This document shows, piece by piece, positions 6,635 to 19,841 of a stretch of DNA of 64,000 bases. The position numbers were made by a program, and so were the translations under genes. Source of the DNA: a virus; the IMG/VR virus record IMGVR_UViG_3300021399_000004, positions 96,001 to 160,000 of that record; one strand, written 5' to 3'. How positions within the stretch are numbered: position 1 is the stretch's first letter; each line of letters starts with the position of its first letter. The notes beneath the pieces were generated by a model. That model saw only the letters and a list, made by a program, of their open reading frames with translations. It had not been told where the DNA came from and searched no databases.

Positions 6635-6764
6635 GGGAGGCTATGGCCTCCTGGCCGGCCCGCTTCCAAATAAATTTCTCAAACCTCTGACAATCTATCT
6701 CACCTATGTTATAATGAACATGTTGAAAGCAGAAGGACACTGCTCAAACCGGAAAGGAAAGACT

Positions 6765-6999: not shown

Positions 7000-7011
7000 T
7001 TTAGGACGCAT

Positions 7012-7031: not shown

Positions 7032-7075
7032 AATCCTTTATAAAAAAAGTTAGGTTTCCCTAACTTTATAGTTTA

Positions 7076-7330
7076 TTATTTATACAAAAGGCACAGGAAG
7101 TAAACATTGAGGACAACGCTGGAGAGGTGCATGAGCACGTCATTGACGTGCCTGTGCTGCGACAAGTCCTTGCATACACCGAATAGCGCAATCGCAAGGC
7201 CGAACCATGAGACTTGAAGGCCGAAGAGCATAATCAGGACTACATTCAGGATAGTGATTCCGCACCGAAGATCATTCCATTCAAAGCGATACGGCATTGA
7301 AATGCCAAACCAGTTCTTTACTCGCTCCAT
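7076..7330 (-). CDS. hypothetical membrane protein (84 aa)
   Basis: ORF track. It is hydrophobic. Its start overlaps the upstream stop (TAATG). Confidence 0.55.
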   Translation of the reverse strand: MERVKNWFGISMPYRFEWNDLRCGITILNVVLIMLFGLQVSWFGLAIALFGVCKDLSQHRHVNDVLMHLSSVVLNVYFLCLLYK

Positions 7331-7623
7331 TATTCGTTATCCTCCATCGTGTCCTCGTAGCCGTAAACGTCACCCGCCCAACGGATTTCATCTTCTGCAA
7401 AATCCGTAGGGGCATCGGGATCAACGTCATCCGCGGCAAGCCAGTCTTCCCAAGTGGGGAAGAAGGCGTAGAAATCATCGCACGCTTCAATCGGATCTTC
7501 CATGTGGCACAGATTGCACTGGTCGCAGTAGGGGCAATCGCCATAGGCATTAACAGGGCAGTACACGGGGTCGCCGTTGCGGTAGCCGTCAGTTTCGTAG
7601 TGGTAATCCTTCATCGTGAACAT
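7330..7623 (-). CDS. Cys-rich acidic protein (97 aa)
   Basis: ORF track 7330..7692. The start MFTMKDY at 7623 follows GGAAAGGA in the cassette leader. It contains CPVNAYGDCPYCDQCNLCH. Confidence 0.55.
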   Translation of the reverse strand: MFTMKDYHYETDGYRNGDPVYCPVNAYGDCPYCDQCNLCHMEDPIEACDDFYAFFPTWEDWLAADDVDPDAPTDFAEDEIRWAGDVYGYEDTMEDNE

Positions 7624-7701
7624 ATCTGTCAATCCTTTCCGTTCCTCTCTCGGGAACAATGCTATTATAGCATGGAGGTTAGTATTTGTCAAGGGATAGA
7701 A

Positions 7702-7721
7702 TTAGATGTTTAAACATCTAA
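7702..7721. repeat. 20-bp palindrome, copy 3
   Basis: Centre TA. It lies 9 bp from the minus-strand -35 TTGACA (7687-7692). Confidence 0.95.
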
Positions 7722-7734
7722 CCTTGTTTAAGAG

Positions 7735-7754
7735 AAAAGCCGCCGGGGCGGCGG
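7735..7754 (-). terminator. rho-independent terminator
   Basis: On the minus strand, CCGCCG-ccc-CGGCGG followed by CUUUUCUCUU. It lies directly after the stop at 7759. Confidence 0.7.
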
Positions 7755-7758
7755 TATA

Positions 7759-8229
7759 TTAGTCTGTGTTTCGGTCATTAAGGGTAAAAGAAATCTCTGT
7801 CCACCCATCAGAACAATTGCCTAATTCTTTGGTGAAGCCTTCAAGTTCAAACTTATCCATGAGGAAACTTCGCATTTCTCCTCCCCACCAAGCACAATTA
7901 ACTTTCCAAAATCTGCGGTCTTTCAGTTTTAGATATTTCTTTGCAAGTTTAATATTCCAACCAAGGCCGTTGTCATAGAAGTAAAAGGTTTTATTTTCGG
8001 CGTCCCATTCAGAGTTACGAGGAATGTAATAGTTTAGAATTTTAGCCGCACGTTCTTCATTCCAATTCTCTTTGCTGTTAAGCCATACATGAATTTTTTT
8101 AAGCATGAGACTGCCAATCCAAAATGGAAACAGAATTACACGAAGAATCTTGTAACTATTCTTGTTCCACCACTTGCGAATCTTGTGTTCTTTCTTGCCC
8201 CGCATCGCCTTGATAACTTCATTTGTCAT
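7759..8229 (-). CDS. hypothetical protein (156 aa)
   Basis: ORF track, with cassette promoter and RBS upstream. Confidence 0.6.
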   Translation of the reverse strand: MTNEVIKAMRGKKEHKIRKWWNKNSYKILRVILFPFWIGSLMLKKIHVWLNSKENWNEERAAKILNYYIPRNSEWDAENKTFYFYDNGLGWNIKLAKKYLKLKDRRFWKVNCAWWGGEMRSFLMDKFELEGFTKELGNCSDGWTEISFTLNDRNTD

Positions 8230-8302
8230 AGTGGTTACTTCCTTTCTGTCCTTTGGACAGATTTATTATAGTATAGAATAAAGAGAAAGTCAAGTAGGAA
8301 TA

Positions 8303-8322
8303 TTAGATGTTTAAACATCTAA
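8303..8322. repeat. 20-bp palindrome, copy 4
   Basis: Centre TA. It lies 9 bp from the -35 TTGACT (8288-8293). Confidence 0.95.
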
Positions 8323-8364
8323 TGGGCTGGCCAGGTGACGGTATGATCGCCACCTAATACATTT

Positions 8365-8640
8365 TTAGTCTGTTTCCTTCTCATTTCGATGATACAATGT
8401 GTTAATAGTTTTACCTTCAGGAAGAGCGGCCAACCTCTTAATCCGCACATATTGCCAACGGTCATGAAGCAAGATAGCAGATCGGTAATCATAGTAAGTA
8501 GTGATAGTGTCTGTTTTCTGTGAATTGTAGACTAAAACACGTTCATCGTTAGCGAGATATTCATACAGTCCGTTTTCATAATCTACACGACAGAAGTCGG
8601 GTTGATGATAGTACACTTCCTTGCGCTTATGACTTTTCAT
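8365..8640 (-). CDS. hypothetical protein (91 aa)
   Basis: ORF track. It has no promoter of its own and appears to be co-transcribed with the small ORF upstream. Confidence 0.6.
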   Translation of the reverse strand: MKSHKRKEVYYHQPDFCRVDYENGLYEYLANDERVLVYNSQKTDTITTYYDYRSAILLHDRWQYVRIKRLAALPEGKTINTLYHRNEKETD

Positions 8641-8680
8641 ACTTAGTATCCCCTTTCTTGTTCGGAGAGTGTCCTTCTCT

Positions 8681-8770
8681 TTACTTGTTTTTGTTATTCA
8701 TCAGTTGAATGATTGAGCAGACAATGATTGCGACTTGACAGATGACGATGATGACGGTTCTGGTGGTCAT
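8681..8770 (-). CDS. 29-aa hydrophobic peptide
   Basis: Hand translation gives MTTRTVIIVICQVAIIVCSIIQLMNNKNK. It follows the promoter TTGACA (8835-8840)-N17-TATAAT and the RBS AGAAAGGAAC. Confidence 0.3.
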   Translation of the reverse strand: MTTRTVIIVICQVAIIVCSIIQLMNNKNK

Positions 8771-8849
8771 AGTGGCGTTCCTTTCTGTTTCTCTCTTTCA
8801 GGAACAACTGTATTATAGCATAGGTTGTGGCGATTGTCAAGAGTTTTTT

Positions 8850-9005
8850 TCAAACTGCGCGCCATTCTCCTGTATTTGCGTCTTTAATAAATTCAACCGC
8901 AGGAATATAAATGTAGTTATCTTCGATGATTTCATATTCGGGGAAAGCATTGGGATTGGTTTCAAGAGTGTTATTGATGAAGGTGATGATTTCTTCGCGC
9001 GTCAT
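8850..9005 (-). CDS. hypothetical protein (51 aa)
   Basis: Hand translation gives MTREEIITFINNTLETNPNAFPEYEIIEDNYIYIPAVEFIKDANTGEWRAV. A full cassette leader lies upstream. It is below the ORF-track size cut-off. Confidence 0.45.
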   Translation of the reverse strand: MTREEIITFINNTLETNPNAFPEYEIIEDNYIYIPAVEFIKDANTGEWRAV

Positions 9006-9119
9006 TTGGTTCCCCTTTCTGGTTTATGGTGTTTTCCTTCACCTTTCAATGATAGTATATCATAAGATACATTTTTTGTCAAGGGGTTTTGAAAATTTTT
9101 TGGCGGGCCGGTCTGTAGG

Positions 9120-9139
9120 TTAGATGTTCAAACATCTAA
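9120..9139. repeat. 20-bp palindrome, copy 5
   Basis: Centre CA. It lies 37 bp from the -35 TTGACA (9077-9082). Confidence 0.95.
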
Positions 9140-9187
9140 ATTGGTTCCGGTTAAGCGTGTCTAACTCTTGCATAAAAGAAAAGCCCC

Positions 9188-10198
9188 TTAGTAGGGGCAG
9201 ACGGTGTTTGTGTATTCAGCAAGGCGGTGAAGTTTGTTAATAAGACTTGCGCAATAGTTGCTAATGGTGTCACTTTCCATTTTTGCGTCAAGGTAGGCAG
9301 AAATTGCGTTATAGACCGTTTCGCACTCTTCCATTTTAGGGGTTTTGCGGCGAGTGACAAAATCTACGGTGTCGCCAAGATCACGGAATGGGAAATATTT
9401 GATACCAATTGATACGGCGTGACGCTTTGCAATGCGGGAAAGAATATAAGTTTCAATAATGGCATCGTCCAGGGCTGTGTGACTCTCTATGAAATCATAT
9501 TTGTTACAGAGATATTGATAAGTAGTTTCGGCGCTGGTCTTGAAATAAGTTCCGGAGGCGGTCAGTAGGCCATGTTTGAGGCACTCGGTTTTATAGGTGG
9601 CATTATTCAGAAGATGAGAAGTAGCAAGCCCCCAAAGGTCAAAGAGCGGATAGGTTTCGCCGCGGAAAGTGAAGGCGTCCGGGTTAAAGTCTTTGTCAGA
9701 ATCTTTCTTGTAGGGTTCATTCGCAATCTTCCGGCAGAGATTTTTTTGAATCTGTTCCCACTTCTGATAGTCGGGGCTGTACAGTTTGCGAATATACAAT
9801 TCAGTGAACGGGATGGCCTTCTTAAAGTCAAACATTGCGTTAAAGGCTCCAACAGCGTCAACTTTGTGCAAGTCGTTAATGAAAATTTCCATGACCGTAT
9901 CCCACGGGGCAAGAACGGTTTCTTTATTTTCCAGCATTGCCAGATACCGAGGGCGCTTTTCCGCATAATAGGCGGTATTGAATACGGCGGGAACGGCGAA
10001 CGTTTCGGCAATCAGAAATTGCTTGTTTTCCAGAATATCGCCCTGCCGGTTAGTAATAGTCCAGCCAATATCGTAAATGAGCGGCCTTGCAATAGCGATC
10101 TTCTTCTTCTTTTCGGGATCACCGTCGGCAATTTCAGAGGCGAACGGGAGGGTAGCGGTTTCGGTATCGACAACCATGTACAGACGGCGCTTGCTCAT
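9188..10198 (-). CDS. DnaQ-like DEDDh 3'-5' exonuclease (336 aa)
   Basis: ORF track. Exo I is VVDTETA, Exo II is AFNAMFDF, Exo III is HTALDDAIIE. It is a paralogue of 18141..18902. Confidence 0.75.
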   Translation of the reverse strand: MSKRRLYMVVDTETATLPFASEIADGDPEKKKKIAIARPLIYDIGWTITNRQGDILENKQFLIAETFAVPAVFNTAYYAEKRPRYLAMLENKETVLAPWDTVMEIFINDLHKVDAVGAFNAMFDFKKAIPFTELYIRKLYSPDYQKWEQIQKNLCRKIANEPYKKDSDKDFNPDAFTFRGETYPLFDLWGLATSHLLNNATYKTECLKHGLLTASGTYFKTSAETTYQYLCNKYDFIESHTALDDAIIETYILSRIAKRHAVSIGIKYFPFRDLGDTVDFVTRRKTPKMEECETVYNAISAYLDAKMESDTISNYCASLINKLHRLAEYTNTVCPY

Positions 10199-10308
10199 AC
10201 GGCAGAAGTCCTTTCCGGTTTGAAGTGTTTTCCTTCACTTGATGGGTACAGTATAACATAAGCGGTGATAAAAGTCAATAGGGAAATTTGATGGGCATAG
10301 CCGTATTA

Positions 10309-10328
10309 TTAGATGTTCAAACATCTAA
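10309..10328. repeat. 20-bp palindrome, copy 6 (between divergent promoters)
   Basis: Centre CA. It lies 30 bp from the minus-strand -35 (10273-10278) and 29 bp from the plus-strand -35 TTGACT (10358-10363). Confidence 0.95.
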
Positions 10329-10411
10329 AAATGTTGAAGGAAAATTAAAAATATGGATTGACTTTTTTATAAAGTCGAGTATAATATAATTGTACCAAGA
10401 GAAAGGAGCCA

Positions 10412-10921
10412 ATGAAGATGACTGATTACAAGCAGGAAGCCCGTAAATTTTTGAAAGAATTTTCTCCTGCGTTAGAAAACTATAATGGTTCACTGACGTA
10501 TATGTGGCAGAAAGCCAAAGAATATAATAAAGGTAGAACGAAAATAAATCAAATTGTTTGTAGAAATGGTGCTACTCGGATAGCTCTTATCGGCAAGGAT
10601 TTTGTTGTAAAGATGGATTATGATGCTGATGATGATATAAAAATGTTTGGTGGATGCGGGAAAGAATACGCTTTGTATAGAAAATGTGTTCGTGAAAATT
10701 CGCCTTATTTGCATTGTTTATTGGAAATTGCTAAAATTAAAGTAGGCAATCATTTCTATTACATCATGCCAAAAGCAAACTATTGCGGGCATACTTCCTT
10801 CTTAAATTTCAATTGTGAAGAAAGAAACTGGCTGTATAGTCATGTAAATGATTTACATAATGGAAATATTGGAAAATATAACGGTAAACCTGTGGTTATT
10901 GATTATGCCTGTCAGTTCTGA
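10412..10921 (+). CDS. mini protein-kinase-like protein (169 aa)
   Basis: ORF track. It has FVVKMD (a Lys-containing strand), the catalytic-loop-like NDLHNGNIG, and VVIDYA. It is a paralogue of the C-terminus of 2889..3677. The TGA stop lies inside the hairpin GCCTGTCA-gttc-TGACAGGC. Confidence 0.55.
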   Translation: MKMTDYKQEARKFLKEFSPALENYNGSLTYMWQKAKEYNKGRTKINQIVCRNGATRIALIGKDFVVKMDYDADDDIKMFGGCGKEYALYRKCVRENSPYLHCLLEIAKIKVGNHFYYIMPKANYCGHTSFLNFNCEERNWLYSHVNDLHNGNIGKYNGKPVVIDYACQF

Positions 10922-10944
10922 CAGGCATTTTCATTATTTGTAGA

Positions 10945-10964
10945 TTAGATGTTTGAACATCTAA
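10945..10964. repeat. 20-bp palindrome, copy 7
   Basis: Centre TG. It sits at a convergent junction with no adjacent promoter. Confidence 0.95.
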
Positions 10965-11007
10965 CCTCTCTGGAAAAAAAGAAAAGCGGCCGAAGCCGCT
11001 TTAAGTG

Positions 11008-11340
11008 TTAGCCCTTCACCGTGTAGGTGTTGGGCTTGCCCTCGGTCTTGACAAGCTCGTCAGCCCACAGGCGGGTAATGGCGTACTGCACATTGCCACG
11101 GGTTACGCCGGTGGGCAGGTCATTCTGGCAAGCCTCGTAAACCTCGCTAACCGTCAGCGACACAGGAGTGGACTTGAACACGTTGAACACAATGTCCTTC
11201 ATAGTCGTATACATGTCGGACTTGGCAGCCTTGACCTCGGCGCCACGGTTCAGCTCCTTGTCAACGGCGGCAAGCAGCTCGGTCTGATCGGGCATGGTAG
11301 ACAGGATGTTGCGGATAGCAGTCAGAGAAGCCTTCGTCAT
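11008..11340 (-). CDS. winged-helix-like protein, paralogue family A (110 aa)
   Basis: ORF track. The C-terminus is LTVSEVYEACQNDLPTGVTRGNVQYAITRLWADELVKTEGKPNTYTV. It aligns by eye with 14723..15061 and 17632..17976. Confidence 0.6.
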   Translation of the reverse strand: MTKASLTAIRNILSTMPDQTELLAAVDKELNRGAEVKAAKSDMYTTMKDIVFNVFKSTPVSLTVSEVYEACQNDLPTGVTRGNVQYAITRLWADELVKTEGKPNTYTVKG

Positions 11341-11518
11341 ATGGATACCCTTTCTGGTTTGTGGGGTTTTCCTTCCCCTGTTTTGTTGTTGTCCCTTGGG
11401 ACACTCTTATTGTACCACACTTTAGTGTGCTTGTCAAGGGAGTTTGGAAACTTTTTTTGAGTTTCAACTACGACCTTGCAACGGTGGTGTGGCTTGGAGT
11501 TCCCTCCTGACAGTATTT

Positions 11519-11547
11519 ATTATAGCAAAGGTTTAAGAAAAAGTCAA
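11519..11547 (-). promoter_or_regulatory. distal promoter upstream of the proximal promoter of 11008..11340
   Basis: TTGACT (11542-11547), N17, TATAAT (11519-11524). The next 25 nt (11502-11526) are identical to 15239-15263. Confidence 0.65.
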
Positions 11548-11566
11548 GCAGACTCTTTTTAATGCT

Positions 11567-11586
11567 TTAGATGTTTAAACATCTAA
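11567..11586. repeat. 20-bp palindrome, copy 8
   Basis: Centre TA. It lies 19 bp from the -35 at 11542-11547. Confidence 0.95.
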
Positions 11587-11593
11587 AATGGCT

Positions 11594-11613
11594 GGGAGGG
11601 CGTTAGCCCTCCC
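11594..11613 (-). terminator. GC hairpin with the stop codon in its loop
   Basis: GGGAGGGC-gtta-GCCCTCCC. The TAA of 11603..11815 occupies loop positions 11603-11605. Confidence 0.65.
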
Positions 11614-11815
11614 CAATAATAGCCTCAACCAGAGGATGCCACGTCTTGATATGAGTCACAATCTGTACATCATCAGGATCAATGAAGCCACCGCAACAGC
11701 CGCAGATAATGGTCTGAATTTCATCGCCCTTGTAGATAGCGATACCCGCAATCTCCTGCCGCAATTCGGCAGGCACAGTCAAGTCGTAGAAGGTAATTTG
11801 TTCAGTGTACATCAT
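11603..11815 (-). CDS. hypothetical protein (70 aa)
   Basis: ORF track. It contains CGCCGG and lies 2 nt downstream of 11818..12003, in the same operon. Confidence 0.55.
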   Translation of the reverse strand: MMYTEQITFYDLTVPAELRQEIAGIAIYKGDEIQTIICGCCGGFIDPDDVQIVTHIKTWHPLVEAIIGEG

Positions 11816-11817
11816 AA

Positions 11818-12003
11818 TTAGTCATCCTCCTCTACAATGTAGTCCATCTCAATCAGGTGCTTGGTCGTGGCGGAGTAGGTCAGGAACTGAATGGTGTTGC
11901 CCATGTACAGGCAGATCTGCCAGTAGTCGTCACGCTTGACCTCAATGAAGTTGGTCTTGGGGTTATTCAGAAGGGCATGAATCATGTTTTCGTATTCGGT
12001 CAT
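11818..12003 (-). CDS. hypothetical protein (61 aa)
   Basis: ORF track, with a cassette leader upstream. Confidence 0.55.
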   Translation of the reverse strand: MTEYENMIHALLNNPKTNFIEVKRDDYWQICLYMGNTIQFLTYSATTKHLIEMDYIVEEDD

Positions 12004-12108
12004 CGTGAATCTCCTTTGGTTTGGTGGGTGTCCTTCCCTTGGTACGGTCTTATTATACCATAGCGGGATTTTATTGTCAAGAGATATATGCAGGAAAGTT
12101 AAAGAATA

Positions 12109-12128
12109 TTAGATGTTTGAACATCTAA
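12109..12128. repeat. 20-bp palindrome, copy 9
   Basis: Centre TG. It lies 28 bp from the -35 TTGACA (12075-12080). Confidence 0.95.
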
Positions 12129-12137
12129 TATAAATAA

Positions 12138-12151
12138 GGCCCATTAGGGCC
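12138..12151 (-). terminator. GC hairpin with the stop codon in its loop
   Basis: GGCCC-atta-GGGCC. TAA occupies 12144-12146, and a U-rich tail follows on the minus strand. Confidence 0.6.
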
Positions 12152-12434
12152 GTAGGTAATCAACAATGATTTCACCAGTATCAGCAGCGATGACTTGCAC
12201 TCTCGTGCAGTCTTTATCTCCAAGATAAATAGCAACAGAATGAAGTGCAGATACAATATCAGTAGTAAATTCTTCATAGTATTCTTCGCCATAATAGCGA
12301 AGGAGACAATAGCCTGGAAGGTAACTCAGAGTAATAGTTTCAGTTGGTTTACAATTGTGAATGAAGTCCATGGCAGATTCACGGGTCGCAAACTCTCGGT
12401 CAAGTCCTGTCGTCTCATTTGTAATCTTCCACAT
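12144..12434 (-). CDS. hypothetical protein (96 aa)
   Basis: ORF track. In the leader GTAC-gaaggag-GTAC the RBS sits in the hairpin loop. Confidence 0.6.
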   Translation of the reverse strand: MWKITNETTGLDREFATRESAMDFIHNCKPTETITLSYLPGYCLLRYYGEEYYEEFTTDIVSALHSVAIYLGDKDCTRVQVIAADTGEIIVDYLRP

Positions 12435-12508
12435 ATTTGTGTACCTCCTTCGTACAATGGTATTATACTATGAGATTAGGCGTGTGTCAAGAGGAGTTCT
12501 AATGGCTA

Positions 12509-12528
12509 TTAGATGTTTGAACATCTAA
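12509..12528. repeat. 20-bp palindrome, copy 10
   Basis: Centre TG. It lies 18 bp from the -35 TTGACA (12485-12490). Confidence 0.95.
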
Positions 12529-12547
12529 TCCAGAAAGGCGGTGGCGG

Positions 12548-12940
12548 TTACACCGCCACCTCACGGTCGAGATACTGGTTAGGGTCGTCCTTCTCTTCTT
12601 CTTCCTGAGCCTTGGCGGCCTTGGCGGCCCGGCGGGCCTTGTCAGCGGCAATCTTAGCCGCCTTTTCCTTAGCCTTGGCTTCGGCCTTCGCCGCCTTGGC
12701 GGCCTTTTCCTCTTTCCACGCTTCAGCCTCCACAAAGGGGTCAAACACACCGCCCTTGGCAGTCTCGGTGAAGGACTTGGACTTAACCGTGATCTCAGTC
12801 CAAACCTCCTGACCGTCTACCTCCTGCAACACGGCGAACGAGGCATCACCAAACTGCACAGCGGCAAGCTGTTCCAGAACGTCATGCAGGGCAGTCAGGG
12901 TCATGGCACGAGCGGCGGACTTGGCTTCCAGAATCTTCAT
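12548..12940 (-). CDS. protein with Lys/Ala-rich (histone H1-like) C-terminal tail, paralogue family B
   Basis: ORF track 12548..12946; the start is the ATG at 12940 after the conserved leader. The tail is EEKAAKAAKAEAKAKEKAAKIAADKARRAAKAAKA. Confidence 0.6.
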   Translation of the reverse strand: MKILEAKSAARAMTLTALHDVLEQLAAVQFGDASFAVLQEVDGQEVWTEITVKSKSFTETAKGGVFDPFVEAEAWKEEKAAKAAKAEAKAKEKAAKIAADKARRAAKAAKAQEEEEKDDPNQYLDREVAV

Positions 12941-13041
12941 AGGCAATTCCCTTTCTGGTTTTTTGGGGTTTTCCTTCCCCTTGGTACATGCTTATTATAC
13001 AGGATTCTTTGGTAAAAGTCAAGAATTTTTAGGGAGATAAA

Positions 13042-13061
13042 TTAGATGTTTGAACATCTAA
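13042..13061. repeat. 20-bp palindrome, copy 11
   Basis: Centre TG. It lies 19 bp from the -35 TTGACT (13017-13022). Confidence 0.95.
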
Positions 13062-13093
13062 TTTAGGTTTTAGGTAAAAGCCCTTGCGGGCTT

Positions 13094-14146
13094 TTACTTA
13101 ATAAATTCTTCAAGATGATTTTGATATTCAATAGCAAATTGCTTCTGGGCCGGGTCGGTCACGTCAGCATTGAAACGAGTAAGATACTGGATAATTTTGC
13201 CTTTGTGCGAAACTTCACATGTAATGCAGGGGGTATCTGGGGCAGAAATTTTCCGTACAGTAACAATGTAAGTTTCGTTATGAAATACTTTCGACATATA
13301 GAGATCTTCTACACAATTCTCTTGCGCCTTTGCTTCAATATGAAATGCTTCTTTGTTAAGAATTGGGCGCGCTTCATAATCCCGATATTGGAAGTAGAGG
13401 AATGGCTTGTCATTATTTTTAGTTAAAATAGAATCATAATTTTCTTGCTTATAAATTTTATAAAGATAGACCATTTTAGCATAAGCGGTTAAGAAATTAT
13501 GCGGCACTTTCACTTCATTATACATCATTATACTCATTTTATAATAGTTAATAATCAATTCTTCAAATTTAGGCTGGGCATAATATACATATGGATTATC
13601 ATCAATATTAGCAGAGAATGAATCAACATTTTCAAGAATCATTCGTTGTAGTATGGAGATAACGTAAGTACCGGGGATTTCTTGATGATGATATGCGATA
13701 GAACGAGCAATCTTTTTTGCCCAGTCGGGAAATCTTTCATGAGCAGGATAATTTTTAGAAAAGTTATAGGCGGCGACGGCGTTATCGCTATACATGCCAT
13801 TATAGTTATCTTTGATAAAGCTAACAAGCTCTTTAGTCAGACGGGAAGAGGAATCTAAAGCACTAAAACTTTCCGGAACTAATCCAACGGATATAAGCTG
13901 TTCAAGCCTGTTTGCTCTTGCTCGGGTGTACTTTTCTTTATAAGTTGATTCGTTCATTCTATACATATAGATAACACGAGCAAAAATATTATTACATGTA
14001 AGATTATTATAAGTAAATACTTGTGGAATGGTCTTAACAGGTTTATTAGACTTGCCGATGAAATTTCCAGTAGTGATATGCCACTTGCCCATCATCTCAT
14101 TCGCATGATATGCTACAATGTAATCTTTCTCTTTGATGAACTCCAT
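13094..14146 (-). CDS. hypothetical protein (350 aa), possibly with a PcfJ-like C-terminal region
   Basis: ORF track. GC is very low, about 25-30%. The segment ENCVEDLYMSKVFHNETYIVTVRK...PCITCEV..IIQYLTRFN weakly recalls PcfJ-like domains; this was not verified. Confidence 0.6.
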   Translation of the reverse strand: MEFIKEKDYIVAYHANEMMGKWHITTGNFIGKSNKPVKTIPQVFTYNNLTCNNIFARVIYMYRMNESTYKEKYTRARANRLEQLISVGLVPESFSALDSSSRLTKELVSFIKDNYNGMYSDNAVAAYNFSKNYPAHERFPDWAKKIARSIAYHHQEIPGTYVISILQRMILENVDSFSANIDDNPYVYYAQPKFEELIINYYKMSIMMYNEVKVPHNFLTAYAKMVYLYKIYKQENYDSILTKNNDKPFLYFQYRDYEARPILNKEAFHIEAKAQENCVEDLYMSKVFHNETYIVTVRKISAPDTPCITCEVSHKGKIIQYLTRFNADVTDPAQKQFAIEYQNHLEEFIK

Positions 14147-14241
14147 GCCGGCAACCTTTCTGGTTTGAGGTGTTTTCCTTCACCTTTCGAGAGTAGTATA
14201 CCACCGATTCAAAGGATTGTCAATAAGGAAAAATTCATAGA

Positions 14242-14261
14242 TTAGATGTTCAAACATCTAA
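14242..14261. repeat. 20-bp palindrome, copy 12
   Basis: Centre CA. It lies 18 bp from the -35 TTGACA (14218-14223). Confidence 0.95.
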
Positions 14262-14265
14262 CCTT

Positions 14266-14285
14266 AAAAGCCCGTTAGGGCTTTT
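14266..14285 (-). terminator. hairpin terminator with the stop codon in its loop
   Basis: AAAAGCCC-gtta-GGGCTTTT. TAA occupies 14275-14277. Confidence 0.65.
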
Positions 14286-14562
14286 TCGAGAAGTTCTTTT
14301 TTACATATGCCCGCAAGGTTTTTTCTGCCTGTTCGGGCGTGCGGCGACGAGTTGTGACAACATTCCAACAATCAAATGCCCCTGCTTCTTCACCGTATTC
14401 ATATATATCAGCGGCGCGCCAGGTATCATCGCCCCACCATTCTGTCATGGCATTTGCGTCAAACAAAGCGTAAGCTCCTTCCCACCCACAGTCCCAAGTG
14501 TCTACTACGGAAAGACAAACATACTGATGATTAGGAGTGCGGATTACTTCATGAAGATACAT
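14275..14562 (-). CDS. hypothetical protein (95 aa)
   Basis: ORF track 14275..14676. The start MYLHEVIR at 14562 follows the conserved leader. Confidence 0.55.
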   Translation of the reverse strand: MYLHEVIRTPNHQYVCLSVVDTWDCGWEGAYALFDANAMTEWWGDDTWRAADIYEYGEEAGAFDCWNVVTTRRRTPEQAEKTLRAYVKKNFSKKP

Positions 14563-14660
14563 TTTGAATCCTTTCTGGTTTTCGGGATTTTCCTTTCCCT
14601 TTGGAACGCTTTTAGTATAGCATAAGATGATTTGGAAATCAAGTCTAATTTTTGATGAGT

Positions 14661-14680
14661 TTAGATGTTTTAACATCTAA
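14661..14680. repeat. 20-bp palindrome, copy 13
   Basis: Centre TT. It lies 18 bp from the -35 TTGATT (14637-14642). Confidence 0.95.
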
Positions 14681-14722
14681 TTAGAAGGCAAAGAAAAAGC
14701 GCCCGTAGGCGCTTTGCAGGGA

Positions 14723-15061
14723 TTACGCCCTGCGGTAGCAGTTGACGCCCTTGACGCCCTCAACCTTGACGATGGCGTCACCCCACAGGCGGGTCAGACC
14801 ATAGCTGACCTTGCCCTTGGTAAAGCCCTCGGGGAGCTTGTCAGCGCACTCGTCATAGATCTCAGCGGCAGTCAGCGGGGCAGTGGTCATCGCAAGGACT
14901 TCCAGCACAGCGGCCTTCGCTTCGTCATAGGCGGACTTGCGCTCAGCCTTGGCGGCTTCGCCACGGTGCAGTTCGGCGTTGAGTTCGTCCATGATGGCGG
15001 TATCAGAGTAGCCAGTCTCGGTCAGGTAAGCAACAACAGCGGACAGAGTAGCCTTCTTCAT
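14723..15061 (-). CDS. winged-helix-like protein, paralogue family A (112 aa)
   Basis: ORF track. The C-terminus is LTAAEIYDECADKLPEGFTKGKVSYGLTRLWGDAIVKVEG. Confidence 0.6.
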   Translation of the reverse strand: MKKATLSAVVAYLTETGYSDTAIMDELNAELHRGEAAKAERKSAYDEAKAAVLEVLAMTTAPLTAAEIYDECADKLPEGFTKGKVSYGLTRLWGDAIVKVEGVKGVNCYRRA

Positions 15062-15255
15062 ACGGGAATCTCCTTCTGGTTTGGTGGGTTTTCCTTCCCT
15101 TGATTACGTGGTAATTATACCACAGATTTTGTTGGCTGTCAAGAGGAAGTTTTAAGTTTCGCAAACTTTTTTTTAGCACTTTGCGAAGGTAGAATTTTTA
15201 AGGCGCGGTGTCAAGGTGCTCGCTTGTCTTGTGCCCTTCCCTCCTGACAGTATTT

Positions 15256-15284
15256 ATTATAGCCGATTCTTTGATAAAAGTCAA
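15256..15284 (-). promoter_or_regulatory. distal promoter upstream of the proximal promoter of 14723..15061
   Basis: TTGACT (15279-15284), N17, TATAAT (15256-15261). The 25-nt leader start (15239-15263) is identical to 11502-11526. Confidence 0.65.
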
Positions 15285-15292
15285 ACAGTTAA

Positions 15293-15312
15293 TTAGATGT
15301 TTAAACATCTAA
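15293..15312. repeat. 20-bp palindrome, copy 14
   Basis: Centre TA. It lies 8 bp from the -35 at 15279-15284. Confidence 0.95.
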
Positions 15313-15326
15313 CTAGAAGAGGCACC

Positions 15327-15518
15327 TTAAAGGTGCTCTGCATGAACTTTGCGGCAGTATGGGCAATAAATATCAACGAAGTCATCATCTCCGTCAATGC
15401 AGACAGGTTTCAAATAAGTATAATCTACCATGAAGTAATGGCCACAATGGGGGCAACTGGTTTCATCATAGTAATAGGTAACTTCTTCGTAGTTCTTCTT
15501 CTGATACTTGCTCATCAT
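15327..15518 (-). CDS. zinc-ribbon protein (63 aa)
   Basis: ORF track. It has CPHCGH...CPYCRK. Confidence 0.55.
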   Translation of the reverse strand: MMSKYQKKNYEEVTYYYDETSCPHCGHYFMVDYTYLKPVCIDGDDDFVDIYCPYCRKVHAEHL

Positions 15519-15568
15519 TTGTTAAGCCCTCCGTGTTTTCATTTGATTTTTAAGATACATAATTGTCA

Positions 15569-15769
15569 TTACGTTTTCCCGTTAATGCAGATAATTTCAT
15601 TTACGGTAGGATCAGTAACTATGAGGACTTTCTTGCAATTAATCAGAGCGCCATGCCCAGACAGGGCAATCTTGAGAATATTGAAAGGCATGGGGTTTGG
15701 CGACCGAACAATGAACTTGTCTGCAAATTCATACACATACTTGATATGATTCTCCATTCGGGATTCCAT
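15569..15769 (-). CDS. hypothetical protein (62-66 aa)
   Basis: ORF track. The alternative start MENHIKY at 15757 fits the RBS spacing better. Confidence 0.5.
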   Translation of the reverse strand: MESRMENHIKYVYEFADKFIVRSPNPMPFNILKIALSGHGALINCKKVLIVTDPTVNEIICINGKT

Positions 15770-15841
15770 CCTTTCTGTTCCCTTGGAACAATTGCATTAT
15801 AGCATAAAATTAAATTGCTGTCAAGAGGCCTGGAAATAATA

Positions 15842-15861
15842 TTAGATGTTAAAACATCTAT
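15842..15861. repeat. 20-bp palindrome, copy 15 (last base T)
   Basis: Centre AA. It lies 17 bp from the -35 TTGACA (15819-15824). Confidence 0.9.
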
Positions 15862-15902
15862 ATAATTTAGACTCGTTCTACAACAAGTCTAAATTTATTT
15901 CT

Positions 15903-16211
15903 TTATACTGTGCGCCTTTCAATAAAGTTCTTAAGTAGTTCTGCCAACTCATGAGCAGTATGCATACTCACATCATCATAATCCCATGGGAATCCCATAG
16001 TTTCCCACATTCCTATAGCATTACCATATGAGCCATCATGGAGGATCGCATCTCCAGGAAGTCCTTCAAAGGTAATTTGAAAACCATTCTGGTAAAACCA
16101 AATGTCTTCAATCTTAATATTATATCGATCGAGTTCAGTGAGAAAAGTATGCAGACTATTGACATAAGTCATGTTAAGGGGAACACGAGTAAATTCAGAG
16201 TAAGTACGCAT
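15903..16211 (-). CDS. hypothetical protein (102 aa)
   Basis: ORF track, with the conserved leader upstream. Confidence 0.6.
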   Translation of the reverse strand: MRTYSEFTRVPLNMTYVNSLHTFLTELDRYNIKIEDIWFYQNGFQITFEGLPGDAILHDGSYGNAIGMWETMGFPWDYDDVSMHTAHELAELLKNFIERRTV

Positions 16212-16297
16212 AGATTTTTCTCCTTTTGGTTTAGAGTTTTCCTTCTCCTAATTACAATTGGAGTATACTATATTTATGGTATTTTGTCAACATAAAA

Positions 16298-16317
16298 TTA
16301 GATGTTCAAACATCTAA
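16298..16317. repeat. 20-bp palindrome, copy 16
   Basis: Centre CA. It lies 7 bp from the -35 TTGACA (16285-16290). Confidence 0.95.
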
Positions 16318-16329
16318 TCTACAAGGCCC

Positions 16330-16767
16330 TCACAAGAGGGTCTTGAGAATTTCAATAATACGGTCAGGGGTATAAGCCGTGTCATGCCAATCATCACGGT
16401 TTTTCTGTTCATCATCGAACAGGATTCCGCCGCCGCAAGTTAAATATTTATTAGTTCCATATCTGACAACTTTGATCTCGTCCCATTCAACCGAGGGCAA
16501 GTGATGAATCAGCCATTCCCTTTTTGCCATTTCTACGGCGGTATTAAATGCTTCGCTTCCGGTTTTAGAAGTCCAGCTAATAATACCAATTTTCCAGCCC
16601 TTGTCCTGCAAGCGATTGAGCAGCCTTGCAAGAAGGCTAAAGTTCAGCATGACTTTAGCGTTTTTGTAGGGGAAAGTATCCTCTCTATTCAGATAGTCAA
16701 GCCACCCTTCCACCTCATACAGGGCGGCGATTGTCCCATCCATGTCAAACCAAATTTCTTTCTTCAT
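16330..16767 (-). CDS. HAD-superfamily nucleotidase-like protein (145 aa)
   Basis: ORF track. It has motif I, WFDMDGTIA, a later ILFDDE, and IISWTSKT (motif II-like). Confidence 0.7.
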   Translation of the reverse strand: MKKEIWFDMDGTIAALYEVEGWLDYLNREDTFPYKNAKVMLNFSLLARLLNRLQDKGWKIGIISWTSKTGSEAFNTAVEMAKREWLIHHLPSVEWDEIKVVRYGTNKYLTCGGGILFDDEQKNRDDWHDTAYTPDRIIEILKTLL

Positions 16768-16866
16768 CTTGTTTATCCTTTCTGGCTTTAGAGATTCTTT
16801 CCTTTTGGGAACAATGACAGTATAGCATACATTAAAAAAGAAGTCAAGGTAGAAAATGAAATAAGA

Positions 16867-16886
16867 TTAGATGTTTGAACATCTAA
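16867..16886. repeat. 20-bp palindrome, copy 17
   Basis: Centre TG. It lies 19 bp from the -35 TTGACT (16842-16847). Confidence 0.95.
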
Positions 16887-16919
16887 ATTTTAGGACGAGG
16901 CGTTAGACGCCTCTAATGG

Positions 16920-17285
16920 TTACTGAGTATTTTCCTTCAACTTCTGCTTGGCAGCACGCTTGGCATTGTCGGCCGCAATTTTCGCCGCTTTCTTGGCGTC
17001 GGCTGCCGCCTTCTTCGCCTTCTTCTCTTCCATGTCAAGGCGGTACTCTTCGGCGGCGGCGTAGGCATCGTACTCAATGTAACCGCCCTGTCCGTCACGA
17101 GTACCACGGGGGATAGATACCTTGACAAGTGCAAACTTCTCATTCTGTGCGCTGTCAAGTACGGGGATGGCGATTTCGTTTCCGCTAACGTCAATAGCGT
17201 CTACGTCAAAGTGGGCGGCAAGCGCCTGGCGGATCACGTCAAGAACCTCATTGCGGATGGGGGTGTTCAGTTCTTCCTTGCTCAT
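16920..17285 (-). CDS. protein with Lys/Ala-rich (H1-like) C-terminal tail, paralogue family B (121 aa)
   Basis: ORF track. The tail is EEKKAKKAAADAKKAAKIAADNAKRAAKQK. It shares AAKIAAD(K/N)A(R/K)RAAK with 12548..12940. Confidence 0.6.
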   Translation of the reverse strand: MSKEELNTPIRNEVLDVIRQALAAHFDVDAIDVSGNEIAIPVLDSAQNEKFALVKVSIPRGTRDGQGGYIEYDAYAAAEEYRLDMEEKKAKKAAADAKKAAKIAADNAKRAAKQKLKENTQ

Positions 17286-17355
17286 ACGTTACTCCTTTTG
17301 GTTTAGAGTTTTCCTTCTCTCATCGTGTACAGTATACCATAGTTAGAAAGAAAAG

Positions 17356-17505
17356 TCAAGGGGTATCGTCGCAAAAGCTGGTGAAAATTCCAAAGATACC
17401 CAGCATTATAAATGCAAGCACGCCGAAGATGGTGTCTCCAAAGATTGCAAATGCGGCCAATAGTGCAACGATGATCCCAAAGATCAAGTACCCGATAGCG
17501 TTCAT
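17356..17505 (-). CDS. small membrane protein (49 aa)
   Basis: In-frame start MNAIGYLIFGIIVALLAAF after AAGGAGGAG, within ORF 17356..17562. The -35 of the next promoter overlaps its stop codon. Confidence 0.45.
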   Translation of the reverse strand: MNAIGYLIFGIIVALLAAFAIFGDTIFGVLAFIMLGIFGIFTSFCDDTP

Positions 17506-17569
17506 ACTTGACTCCTCCTTTATTTTCATGTATATTATAGCATAAAATTTTATAGTTGTCAAATAATTA

Positions 17570-17589
17570 TTAGATGTTTAAACATCTAA
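17570..17589. repeat. 20-bp palindrome, copy 18
   Basis: Centre TA. It lies 7 bp from the -35 TTGACA (17557-17562). Confidence 0.95.
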
Positions 17590-17631
17590 CTACTGCTGAT
17601 TAAAAAAAGAGGGCCGAAGCCCTCTTGTGGA

Positions 17632-17976
17632 TTACGCCTTGCGGCTATACAGGGTGGCGCCCTTGCTACCCTTGTCCGCAATCAGTTCGTCTACCCAATA
17701 GCGGGTCATGGCGTACTGCATCTTGCCCTTGGTGAAACCATCGGGCAGCTGGTCAGCAATGCTCTCATACAGCTCACTGACCGTTACGGGGCCAACAGCA
17801 TCCGCAAGACCATTCATCACGACATCATGCGCCTCAGCGTACAGCTCGCGATTCGCCTGCGCCTTGACGGCGTTCTTGTTCAGCTCAGCCTCCAGCTCAG
17901 CCTTGATTTCATCGAGGTTGGTCACAGTCTCGCCGTTGAGGTAGGAAACGAGGGACATCATGGTGGACTTCTTCAT
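17632..17976 (-). CDS. winged-helix-like protein, paralogue family A (114 aa)
   Basis: ORF track 17632..18081. The start MKKSTMMSL at 17976 follows the conserved leader. The C-terminus is VTVSELYESIADQLPDGFTKGKMQYAMTRYWVDELIADKG. Confidence 0.6.
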   Translation of the reverse strand: MKKSTMMSLVSYLNGETVTNLDEIKAELEAELNKNAVKAQANRELYAEAHDVVMNGLADAVGPVTVSELYESIADQLPDGFTKGKMQYAMTRYWVDELIADKGSKGATLYSRKA

Positions 17977-18096
17977 ATGGGGTTCTCCTTTGGTTTGTGA
18001 GGTTTTCCTTCCTCTATTTTTTCTGTCCCCTCTCTTGGGAACAATTGTATTATAGCAAAAGTCATAGTAAAAGTCAAGCAATAAATCAAGAAATAA

Positions 18097-18116
18097 TTAG
18101 ATGTTTAAACATCTAA
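18097..18116. repeat. 20-bp palindrome, copy 19
   Basis: Centre TA. It lies 19 bp from the -35 TTGACT (18072-18077). Confidence 0.95.
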
Positions 18117-18132
18117 CCTAAGAGAGAAAAGG

Positions 18133-18153
18133 GGCGGAGGTTAGCCCTCCGCC
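18133..18153 (-). terminator. GC hairpin with the stop codon in its loop
   Basis: GGCGGAGG-ttagc-CCTCCGCC. TAA occupies 18141-18143. Confidence 0.65.
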
Positions 18154-18902
18154 GTAGTAAATGAATATGTATCATTCTTTACATACTTTTTAATATATCG
18201 TCCTTTGATAACCTGTACTCCGTCAATTTTAATTGTGAAGGGTTTAATCTGTTGCCGTTTCAAAATCTTTTTTACTTCATAATCATGATTCCATTCTGCG
18301 CCACGTTTGATACATTCAAGCAAAATATTGCTTTCAATTTGTGCATCATACAGGCCCATGTGCTTTTCTATAAAATCATATTTGCTTTGGATATATTGAT
18401 ATACAGATTCAGCGCTGCCGCTATAATTGCCCGTATCTGTAAAGCGCTGATTTACTTCACAAAATTGCTTGTACTCGTCTGTATTTGTGATAAAAGCGCT
18501 TGCATAGCCCCAAATATCATGAATGGCTACCGTATCAAAAGGATTCATTGTTCTGAACCAATCACAATTATAGGTTAAGACTTTATCATCGAAAGTTGAG
18601 TTATAGGCATATGCATCAGTGATATTAAATGCTTTAATATCTCGTCTGATAGCTTGCATGATATAGCCCCACTTGTCCATGATCGCCAGCTTGCTTCTCA
18701 TTAGCGTGATATAGTCGGGGCGCTTGTCTTTATAATAGGCGCTTTCAAAAAGAGGGAGATTGTGCCAGACCTGTTCTACAATGTAATGCGCCTGCTTGAC
18801 CAGCTCATTCGATTCAGTATTGATTATTACATAACCAATATCATAGCAGAAGCATTTTTCGAGGCCGGTTGTCTCCGTGTCAAATACCATGATGAATCCC
18901 AT
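18141..18902 (-). CDS. DnaQ-like DEDDh 3'-5' exonuclease (253 aa)
   Basis: ORF track. It has VFDTETTG, AYNSTFDD and HMGLYDAQIE. It shares AYY(A/K)(E/D)KRP(R/D)Y with 9188..10198. Confidence 0.7.
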   Translation of the reverse strand: MGFIMVFDTETTGLEKCFCYDIGYVIINTESNELVKQAHYIVEQVWHNLPLFESAYYKDKRPDYITLMRSKLAIMDKWGYIMQAIRRDIKAFNITDAYAYNSTFDDKVLTYNCDWFRTMNPFDTVAIHDIWGYASAFITNTDEYKQFCEVNQRFTDTGNYSGSAESVYQYIQSKYDFIEKHMGLYDAQIESNILLECIKRGAEWNHDYEVKKILKRQQIKPFTIKIDGVQVIKGRYIKKYVKNDTYSFTTAEG

Positions 18903-18992
18903 ATTGTGTAGCTCCTTTCAAGTATATGGTTTTGGGGAACGGTAGTATTATAACATGACTAAAGATATGTGTCAATAGCCTGGAAGATTAAA

Positions 18993-19012
18993 TTAGATGT
19001 TTAAACATCTAA
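18993..19012. repeat. 20-bp palindrome, copy 20
   Basis: Centre TA. It lies 17 bp from the -35 TTGACA (18970-18975). Confidence 0.95.
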
Positions 19013-19035
19013 CTCTATGTTAAAGGCTGGGGTGG

Positions 19036-19233
19036 TTAATCCCAGTCTTCGTCGTCCGCGTTCAGTACAACATAACCATTGCAATCCTGCACATCGGTGA
19101 CACGCGGCCACAGCAATTCAAAATCATTGTAGTGCGGGCCATATCCCTCATTCTGCCAAAAGGTATCGGGGATCCGAACAATGCTGTCCTGGGGCAGCTT
19201 GAGCAGGGAAGCAATCAGTTCACGTACAGTCAT
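19036..19233 (-). CDS. hypothetical protein (65 aa)
   Basis: ORF track. Confidence 0.55.
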   Translation of the reverse strand: MTVRELIASLLKLPQDSIVRIPDTFWQNEGYGPHYNDFELLWPRVTDVQDCNGYVVLNADDEDWD

Positions 19234-19388
19234 CTTTTTTTACCTCTTTCTTTTTCTTTGTCGGGAGGGAGCGTGAGTCTCATCCACACTGTAGGCTTCC
19301 GAGGAATGCGTTTTCCCTCCCGACAATGGTATAATACCATATTACGGGAAAATTGTCAAGAGGTTTTTTGAACTCGGAAAAAGGCTGT

Positions 19389-19408
19389 TTAGATGTTCAA
19401 ACATCTAA
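19389..19408. repeat. 20-bp palindrome, copy 21
   Basis: Centre CA. It lies 29 bp from the -35 TTGACA (19354-19359). Confidence 0.95.
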
Positions 19409-19449
19409 CCTGGTAAAATGGAATGGGCGGCTTTTCGCCGCCCGGTATC

Positions 19450-19686
19450 TTATCGATAATAATTCTGATTGTAGCGCTCATAAGCGCTCATTTTGCGGTA
19501 TTCATTGTATTCCAGCTCACTAATTTCTTTGCCCTGGATAATGGCGCGGGTGTGCTTAACGCTGGGCATCCGCTTGGCCCTGTCCATAGCTTCCAGCAGG
19601 TTTTCAGCTTTGATGGCGAAGGTGATTTCAGTGCTGTGGCCAATGCCGCAATGCCCCCGGTGGCAAGTAACCTTGTAATACTTCAT
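19450..19686 (-). CDS. hypothetical protein (78 aa)
   Basis: ORF track. Confidence 0.55.
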   Translation of the reverse strand: MKYYKVTCHRGHCGIGHSTEITFAIKAENLLEAMDRAKRMPSVKHTRAIIQGKEISELEYNEYRKMSAYERYNQNYYR

Positions 19687-19780
19687 GGTTTTTTCTCCTT
19701 TCTTTCGGTGGGTTTCCTCTCACCGTGATTAGAGTATAACATAATGGAGGATAAAAGTCAATAGTGCATATTGAGTTCAT

Positions 19781-19800
19781 TTAGATGTTTGAACATCTAA
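19781..19800. repeat. 20-bp palindrome, copy 22
   Basis: Centre TG. It lies 19 bp from the -35 TTGACT (19756-19761). Confidence 0.95.
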
Positions 19801-19819
19801 CCTAAAGGAAACAAAAAGG

Positions 19820-19841
19820 GGCGGAGGTTTATCCCTCCGCC
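19820..19841 (-). terminator. GC hairpin with the stop codon in its loop
   Basis: GGCGGAGG-tttatc-CCTCCGCC. TAA occupies 19829-19831. Confidence 0.65.

Follow-up and report, generated by a model that had tools for sequence, protein, structure and literature searches.

Here we describe a recurrent messenger RNA (mRNA) leader in the window, i.e. a 64,000-nt stretch of viral DNA analysed at its full length (positions 96,001 to 160,000 of IMG/VR record IMGVR_UViG_3300021399_000004). The leader precedes early genes of a TAG-recoded uncultured phage, and these genes are under host-type promoters. It combines a short hairpin, whose loop AAGGAAAA resembles a Shine-Dalgarno (SD) sequence, with an extended SD at a fixed distance from this loop. 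Judged from its sequence, the leader appears to be a portable signal that acts on translation or on the stability of the mRNA and has not been described before. Selection on the RNA hairpin, which a first-pass annotation of the window had proposed, is strongly supported by 338 unique copies outside the window. These include 43 stem versions. Of 116 gene clusters, 101 are preceded by the hairpin, and this holds for 75 of the 90 singleton families among them. All counts on outside copies (338 unique copies, 283 with the hairpin, 116 gene clusters) refer to copies among the matches listed.

The element is a leader of ~45 nt. The promoter is followed by 8-15 nt, a stem of 3-5 bp that carries the AAGGAAAA loop, 6-7 nt, the motif AAACCAGAAAGG, which holds the SD, a further 8-10 nt and the ATG. 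A sigma-A-type promoter is linked to 241 of the 283 hairpin copies. In these, 7-42 nt (mostly 8-15 nt) separate the end of the -10 from the stem, so that a 5' tail of ~2-9 nt is predicted. Distances on the downstream side are narrow: 6 or 7 nt lie between the loop end and AAACC in 244 of 280 copies, and the loop GG is 22-23 nt away from the SD GG, which is itself mostly 8-10 nt from the start codon. Furthermore, 19 of the 283 copies are internal, i.e. they have no promoter and lie at most 60 nt from the end of the upstream open reading frame (ORF; for example, window 8652-8684). In the cassettes at 11409 and 18049, as well as in the outside loci L059 and L096, the AAGG-loop hairpin follows a separate hairpin at +1 and adjoins the SD. 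The internal copies and the position behind a +1 hairpin thus place the element in the translation-initiation region rather than in the promoter or at the extreme 5' end. It is more than a 5'-end cap.

When comparing the loops, we find that the constant part is AAGG on the 5' side, followed by A/C-rich bases, with a loop size of 7-9 nt. Common variants beside AAACCAGAAAGG are AAGGACA, AAGGAAA, AAGGGAAA and AAGGAACAA; AAGGATA, AAGGCAA and AAGGTCA also occur. The loop had been described as invariant, and indeed all ten window copies that the first-pass annotation listed carry exactly AAGGAAAA, whereas family-wide only the AAGG is constant. Hairpins with a AAGGAAAA loop and at least 4 pairs are followed by AAACCRRAARGG in 246 of 298 cases and mostly by AACACCAGAAAGG or AAACCAGAGAGG in the remainder, so that the conserved core is CCAGAAAGG. 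Of 280 copies, 168 have AAGGA at the SD, 72 have AAGGG and the other 40 have AAGGC or AAGGT. An ATG lies 4-13 nt past the loop in only 4 of 283 copies; the loop is thus a non-initiating SD.

The stems covary. The ten hairpins of the first-pass annotation, reported ~25-35 nt before the start codon, are all found exactly on the minus (mRNA) strand, at a measured 26-35 nt from the ATG, and each is followed by N1-3 and AAACC(A/G)(G/A)AA(A)GG, as had been claimed. Among these ten, all four core pairs are changed on both sides (9 such cells compared to 2.4 in shuffles), and the covariation score is 0.578; shuffling gives 0.216 (0/500), and controls with a slid 3' partner give 0.03-0.13. The compensatory changes extend to 150 distinct non-window copies, for which a downstream start codon was the sole selection criterion. 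Here, the score is 0.605 compared to 0.173, none of 500 shuffles reaches the observed value, and 189 cells are changed on both sides compared to 60 in shuffles. Slid controls, which retain the relatedness of the copies, reach only 0.04-0.17. Leaders were aligned as equal-length sets; MAFFT on unequal lengths gapped the stem. RNAalifold independently returns the identical 4-pair hairpin. G-U pairs are uninformative about the RNA strand, being no commoner than A-C mismatches.

A stem of at least 3 pairs adjoins the loop in 283 of 338 unique copies (84%), compared to ~18% when 5' and 3' halves are re-paired between copies, and its length is 3-5 bp in 268 of 338. Each large downstream gene family holds 9-16 of the 43 stem versions. 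The many stems within each gene family, together with the hairpin before most gene clusters, show that shared descent of gene plus leader is insufficient to explain the pattern.

Within the window, the loop AAGGAAAA occurs 19 times compared to 6.5 expected, and the composite AAGGAAAA-N4-9-AAACCRRAA 9 times compared to 0.01 expected, which excludes chance. A covariance model, for which the first-pass annotation had called, was trained on 5 window copies and 29 from other contigs, 34 in total, and run without filters. It recovers 13 window copies at E<1e-3, all within 6.7-18.0 kb. These copies, a borderline variant and two associated +1 hairpins are as follows.

9014..9047, minus strand: leader with GGUG-AAGGAAAA-CACC (9028-9043; the plus strand reads GGTGTTTTCCTTCACC) and AUAAACCAGAAAGG; ATG 9005; promoter 9082-9054; 56.1 bits, E=2e-14.
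10210..10243, minus strand: leader with AAGUG-AAGGAAAA-CACUU (10223-10240) and CAAACCGGAAAGG; ATG 10198 of a DnaQ-like exonuclease gene; promoter 10278-10250; 50.1 bits.
11349..11382, minus strand: leader with GGGG-AAGGAAAA-CCCC (11363-11378); ATG 11340 of a gene of winged-helix family F1; promoter 11437-11409; 55.5 bits.
Upstream of leader 11349..11382: +1 hairpin GUCCCAAGGGAC.
12950..12984, minus strand: leader with GGGG-AAGGAAAA-CCCC (12965-12980); ATG 12940 of a gene of family F2; promoter 13022-12994; 42 bits.
14155..14188, minus strand: leader with AGGUG-AAGGAAAA-CACCU (14168-14185); ATG 14146 of a PcfJ-like gene; promoter 14223-14195; 56.7 bits.
14570..14603, minus strand: leader with GGGA-AAGGAAAA-UCCC (14584-14599); ATG 14562; 50.7 bits.
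15071..15104, minus strand: leader with GGG-AAGGAAAA-CCC (15086-15099) and ACCAAACCAGAAGGAG; ATG 15061, family F1; promoter 15142-15114; 41.4 bits.
16222..16252, minus strand: leader with (G)GAG-AAGGAAAA-CUC(U) (16234-16247) and AAACCAAAAGGAG; ATG 16211; promoter 16290-16262; 25 bits, E=3e-5.
17294..17324, minus strand: leader with AGAG-AAGGAAAA-CUCU (17305-17320) and AAACCAAAAGGAG; ATG 17285, family F2; promoter 17359-17331; 24.5 bits, E=5e-5.
17987..18018, minus strand: leader with GAGG-AAGGAAAA-CCUC (17999-18014) and ACAAACCAAAGGAG; ATG 17976, family F1; promoter 18077-18049; 40.2 bits.
Upstream of leader 17987..18018: +1 hairpin GUUCCC..GGGGAC.
12013..12043, minus strand: variant leader with GGG-AAGGACA-CCC and ACCAAACCAAAGGAG; ATG 12003; promoter 12080-12052; 20.3 bits, E=8e-4.
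8652..8684, minus strand: variant leader in an operon, with AGAG-AAGGACA-CUCU, then GAACAAGAAAGGGG; ATG 8640; 21.2 bits, E=4e-4.
6725..6757, plus strand: variant leader with GCAG-AAGGACA-CUGC and UCAAACCGGAAAGG; ATG ~6765; promoter 6687-6715; 33 bits, E=1e-7.
16777..16806, minus strand: borderline variant AAAGCCAGAAAGG with a poor hairpin; ATG 16767; 15.6 bits, E=0.02.

The first-pass annotation had also suspected looser variants near three positions. The one at 12029 is recovered by the model, the one at 16790 is borderline, and the one at 19705 is not borne out (E=3.7). The copies at 8652-8684 and 6725-6757 had been missed. At the former, the hairpin (8684-8652) overlaps the stop codon of the preceding ORF, a hydrophobic ORF of 29 codons at 8769-8683 on the minus strand (MTTRTVIIVICQVAIIVCSIIQLMNNKNK), which has its own promoter (8840-8812) and a +1 hairpin.

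The genes behind the ten listed leaders had been called unrelated. They do represent 7 protein families, yet three of the genes are paralogues of one family and two of another. The family with three window paralogues is F1, with proteins of ~110 aa (11340-11008, 15061-14723 and 17976-17632), and it is the commonest gene behind the leader, with 109 members in the collected loci. With its profile, weak matches to winged-helix DNA-binding domains are obtained (N-terminus of Hop2, E=4e-4; BlaI, E=0.06), and the family resembles DNA binders with a winged helix of the Hop2/BlaI type. For family F2, no relatives were detected.

The leaders form part of a larger arrangement. Minus-strand genes at ~6-25 kb of the window are organized in ~38 small cassettes, each with a palindrome, a promoter, a short leader (hairpin, SD and ATG) and often an intrinsic terminator. 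The perfect palindrome TTAGATGTT-NN-AACATCTAA is present in 38 copies (window 6136-25238), and the -35 of an early promoter lies 9-40 nt downstream of each. The promoters are near-consensus TTGACA-17-(TG)TATAAT, i.e. of the host sigma-A type. A likely role of the palindrome is that of an operator specific to the phage or of a recombination cassette like the PeSLs, and the F1 family is a candidate binder of the palindromes. Related phages have other palindromes at the equivalent position (TTAGATGTTAAACATCTAA, TTAGGTGG..CCACCTAA and GAAAATTTTC), and a scan of IMG/VR for relatives with the palindrome TTAGATGTTNNAACATCTAA gave single chance matches only. On the plus strand, window 27000-62000 encodes structural and late genes of the phage, among them those for a portal protein, a virion protein and a sigma-factor-like protein. 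Their reading frames stay open only when TAG counts as sense: the portal gene and others contain 3-11 in-frame TAGs each, and an ORF of 5,623 codons (43389-60260) contains 178. ARAGORN found no tRNA in the window.

The leader is shared by many elements: several hundred genes of related phages have it, from at least 100 unrelated families and on more than 100 contigs of IMG/VR and of Clostridia metagenome-assembled genomes (MAGs). In IMG/VR, the pattern AAGGAAAA-N4-9-AAACCRRAARGG occurs in at least 120 stretches on contigs of 4.5-240 kb, and many of these loci have 4-6 copies. In a set with one genome per species (185,579 species), the stricter AAGGAAAA-N4-9-AAACCAGAAAGG is found in only 101 stretches. 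The cases with multiple copies are phage-like contigs in gut and rumen MAGs assigned to Acutalibacteraceae, Oscillospiraceae, Christensenellales, Eubacteriales and Clostridia. We thus reject the motif as a general host feature, given this small number of stretches and the phage-like nature of those with multiple copies. Single matches in unrelated phyla (Ruegeria, Maribacter and similar genera) are without the hairpin. One copy of the leader is in a cultured organism: Ruminococcus sp. Marseille-P6503 carries it in an inovirus-like prophage (L182:3645-7332; NZ_UWPB01000002.1, ~1.00 Mb). There it consists of a promoter, AGGA-AAGGAAAA-UCCU, AAAAACCAGAAAGG and the ATG, and the prophage encodes a Zot-family ATPase and a Rep protein with an SF3 helicase domain.

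The leader has no counterpart in the sources that we searched. Rfam 15 gave no match in the whole window at the gathering score, and at E<=5 it gave 12 weak matches in 6-26 kb, none of them on a leader. Among 50,697 GenBank phage records, no cultured relative was found with megablast, tblastn (F1 protein) or short-blastn; the sole relative match was between the exonuclease protein and an unannotated faecal 'Bacteriophage sp.' contig. Nothing relevant to the sequence or to conserved leaders of early genes came up in the full-text literature search.

Our leading explanation, which we put forward tentatively and rate at just short of an even chance, is that the leader is a portable cis-acting module for initiation and stability that engages the 30S subunit. 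Its users would be genes with host sigma-A-type promoters, carried by phages and further mobile elements whose hosts are gut and rumen Clostridia. The weak hairpin of 3-5 bp, with its loop of 7-9 nt opening with AAGG, is followed 6-7 nt on by putatively single-stranded AAACC and then by AGAAAGG(A), which would be the real SD, 8-10 nt from the ATG. By folding the upstream RNA compactly, the hairpin would keep the A-rich SD region open whatever gene or upstream sequence is attached, and, docked to the ribosome-binding site (RBS) at its 5' edge, would serve as an insulator. The loop AAGG(A) would serve as a second, non-initiating SD-like site that holds the 30S subunit (a standby or STAB-SD-type site), and a subunit held there could both speed up initiation and block 5'-to-3' decay into the SD. 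We thus picture 30S binding, enhancement and stabilisation as the putative functions of the leader.

Several features are consistent with this module. The last 7-8 nt of the 3' end of Firmicute 16S rRNA are complementary to AGAAAGG(A), and the UCCUU of the anti-SD is complementary to the loop AAGGA. Both the loop AAGG(A) and the SD AGAAAGG(A) thereby match the anti-SD. Clostridia use ACCUCCUUU (PMC10783764). The leader contains hardly any U, and in predicted ensembles the SD is largely unpaired. The loop is an SD-like tract upstream of and apart from the initiating SD, without a nearby start codon, as in STAB-SD elements. Firmicute mRNAs are stabilised and well expressed with a 5' hairpin and/or a ribosome-bound SD-like tract before the coding region; precedents are the aprE 5' stem-loop plus RBS, STAB-SD and the SP82 polypurine stabiliser, all of which protect mRNA from 5'-to-3' decay, and in hbs mRNA a bound ribosome blocks RNase J1 (PMC3997798). 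The first-pass annotation had left the role between a ribosome standby or enhancer site and the binding site of a phage RNA-binding protein. An initiation role fits the anatomy: loop and SD keep a rigid distance, that to the promoter varies, and the element is used at internal cistrons too. Known RNA-binding domains (Pfam) were not found among the 34 early window proteins, so no candidate emerged there for the phage protein that had been suggested. As the leader is common to very different elements of one host group and no gene of a known RNA-binding protein was found, host machinery is favoured as the partner, e.g. the ribosome or a protein of the host.

The leader resembles the B. subtilis aprE leader, cryIIIA STAB-SD and the SP82 stabiliser in that these are short Firmicute leaders with a 5' hairpin and/or a non-initiating ribosome-binding purine tract before the RBS; SP82 is, in addition, a phage early RNA. 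It differs from them in that the SD-like tract is placed within the hairpin loop, at a fixed 6-7 nt from the SD region, and is not tied to the 5' end. Furthermore, it is a sequence family with hundreds of copies in many phages and carries the additional AAACC and loop tail. In a 5'-terminal stabiliser of the ompA/aprE type, the hairpin lies within a few nt of the transcript's 5' end; here, most promoter-linked copies have a short predicted 5' tail, and 19 copies are internal and two window copies lie behind a +1 hairpin. Leaders in which a hairpin plus SD affects initiation or stability are a known kind of element; what is new is the SD-like loop at a fixed distance to an extended SD, in hundreds of copies across uncultured Clostridia phages.

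Some observations weigh against a 30S-engaging module. The hairpin is weak: alone it has -2.4 to -7.0 kcal/mol, and in predicted whole-leader ensembles it forms with a probability of 0.03-0.97. Pairing with the anti-SD accounts for AAGG(A) only; the conserved loop tail (3' half, AAAA or ACA) and the AAACC/AACACC before the SD have no anti-SD partner. Pairing of AAACC with a GGUU-extended 16S tail (...CCUUUCUGGUU) was rejected, as no such 16S end was found: a search for GATCACCTCCTTTCTGGTT in 241 million metagenome records gave 41 matches, none of which is a 16S end and all of which are antisense of RBS regions. The 5 nt of anti-SD complementarity inside the loop make a modest ribosome site. 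Finally, the rigid 22-23-nt spacing of the two AAGG motifs also fits a dimeric protein.

The main rival, which we consider possible but on the unlikely side, is a two-site operator for a dimeric RNA-binding protein, i.e. host CsrA or another host or phage protein. One subunit would bind the loop AAGGA and the other the SD AAGG(A), 22-23 nt apart, and all leader-bearing genes would be repressed or timed together. CsrA targets such as E. coli glgC and B. subtilis hag have a similar layout, with a GGA in the loop of a hairpin of at most 4 pairs just upstream of the SD and a second site over the SD, 10-63 nt apart (PMC7652899). In our leaders, the GGA is present in nearly all loops (AAGGAAAA) on stems of 3-5 bp in 268 of 338 copies, the rigid spacing falls within the range of CsrA sites, and the SD is followed by A, giving a second GGA, in 60% of copies (168 of 280). 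The conserved AAACC and loop tail also call for a partner other than the anti-SD. However, the flanks ACA and GU (5' and 3' of the GGA) of the SELEX consensus RUACARGGAUGU are absent (the sequence is (stem)G-AAGGAAAA-C(stem)), and the loop has 8 nt rather than 6. Moreover, the loops AAGGC, AAGGG and AAGGT lack the GGA, as do 40% of SD sites. We found no CsrA-like ORF in the window and 1.74 Mb of motif-bearing DNA, and no CsrA in IMG/VR with a B. subtilis query; no CsrA could be linked to these phages or their hosts. The leaders also belong to mobile elements and not to host flagellar or metabolic genes, and for a phage there is no obvious benefit in a host protein that represses all of its own early genes.

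A further reading, which we regard as decidedly doubtful, is that the double-AAGG leader is a translational 'address label'. Unrelated mobile elements of Oscillospirales-type Clostridia would share it horizontally; tailed phages with recoded late genes would be among them, as would the inovirus-like prophage. Its reader would be a dedicated partner, be it a host protein that binds RNA or a specific docking site of the 30S platform unused by host mRNAs, and AAACC and the loop tail would be contacts of this partner. It is quite improbable that the leader is conserved mainly at the DNA level, as part of a recombining and homogenised promoter cassette (palindrome, promoter and leader) with an incidental hairpin. 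In favour of this are the 38 cassette boundaries with one palindrome and promoter, the hypervariable gene content behind the leader (90 singleton families) and the PeSL cassettes of T4-like phages, where a small repeated stem-loop and an early promoter lie between hypervariable early ORFs and serve gene shuffling (PMC4122927). The PeSL stem-loop is, however, a terminator upstream of the promoter, and its window counterpart is the palindrome TTAGATGTT..AACATCTAA. The AAGG-loop hairpin lies downstream of the promoter in the mRNA leader and adjoins the SD; it is thus a neighbour of such a cassette and not its stem-loop. Recombination would also not produce compensatory stem changes, with 43 stem versions around an intact loop, and the leader is conserved across phages with wholly different upstream palindromes and promoter spacers and is retained where promoter and palindrome are absent. 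The two ideas are compatible, as the leader may be both a functional RNA and a recombination hotspot. T4 RegB cuts SD-like GGAG in early leaders, and an endoribonuclease site that silences early mRNAs at the early-to-late switch would suit an SD-like purine motif that is found in the loop only in early-gene leaders on host promoters. The sigma-like factor of the phage and its recoded late genes also make a sharp switch likely. Nevertheless, this is as improbable as recombination or slightly more so, since the motif is AAGGA(A) and not GGAG, no RegB-like or other nuclease domain was found among the 34 early proteins, and the inovirus-like prophage has no early/late programme. We consider it extremely unlikely that the leader is a boxB-like hairpin that loads an antitermination protein onto RNA polymerase. 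Like lambda boxB/nut, it is a small hairpin of early transcripts, just past the promoter, with a purine-rich conserved loop and covarying stems, and the cassettes end in intrinsic terminators. In contrast to boxB, its loop has 7-9 nt and is not a GNRA-like pentaloop, no boxA-like sequence (CGCTCTT(T)A) is found in the early leaders, and no N-like protein was identified. There are also 13 copies per genome, each at a fixed spacing to the SD and some inside operons, and read-through is not needed as each cassette has its own promoter.

If functional as proposed, the leader would be a new and widespread cis-regulatory RNA motif with hundreds of covarying copies that is specific to uncultured phages of gut and rumen Clostridia. 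In such phages, its sequence would mark early genes that the host transcribes, and it would hint at the hosts. Together with the promoter, it would form a small, naturally occurring expression cassette for difficult-to-engineer Clostridia. The leader would further be a defined RNA bait for the partner, with the cultured Ruminococcus sp. Marseille-P6503 as a starting system, and in the case of an address label it would provide selective or switchable translation for invading elements. To a specialist, a leader with an enhancing or stabilising effect on expression would come as no surprise. The evidence of covariation is strong, the motif is widespread and its function is putative.

Lastly, we describe further elements in the window and in the collected loci. 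The suggestion that the AAGG-loop hairpin marks a subset of genes is borne out, since ~17 other early cassettes use a different hairpin at +1. This second leader class is on the minus strand (e.g. 7664, 8265, 8812, 12462, 15796 and 20600-24012). Its hairpin GTYCC-(AAG/AAAG/GAGAGA)-GGRAC begins 6 nt past the -10, at ~+1, and the SD AGAAAGGA follows directly. The stem of this class varies as well while pairing is retained (GTTCC/GGAAC, GTACC/GGTAC and GTCC/GGAC).

The region 24000-26000 of the window has 21% GC and contains 3-4 palindrome-plus-promoter cassettes without an ORF that share ..ATGCGAGCTGG.. (-35 hexamers at 24392, 24719, 24955 and 25211). These cassettes may encode small RNAs. Among soil metagenome contigs (L231-L271), ~29 share the gene start AACCAGAAAGGAGGTGATC-CTGTG.., with an RBS that is complementary to the entire anti-SD region. 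An extra promoter with an RNA of ~90 nt beginning AATACTGTCAGGAGGGAA is found at 11547-11440 and 15284-15145 on the minus strand, in both cases upstream of the own promoter of one of two paralogous winged-helix genes. Hairpins with GGTTGAGGGAA that resemble this RNA are present in the MAG loci L139, L150, L167, L179, L188 and L219.

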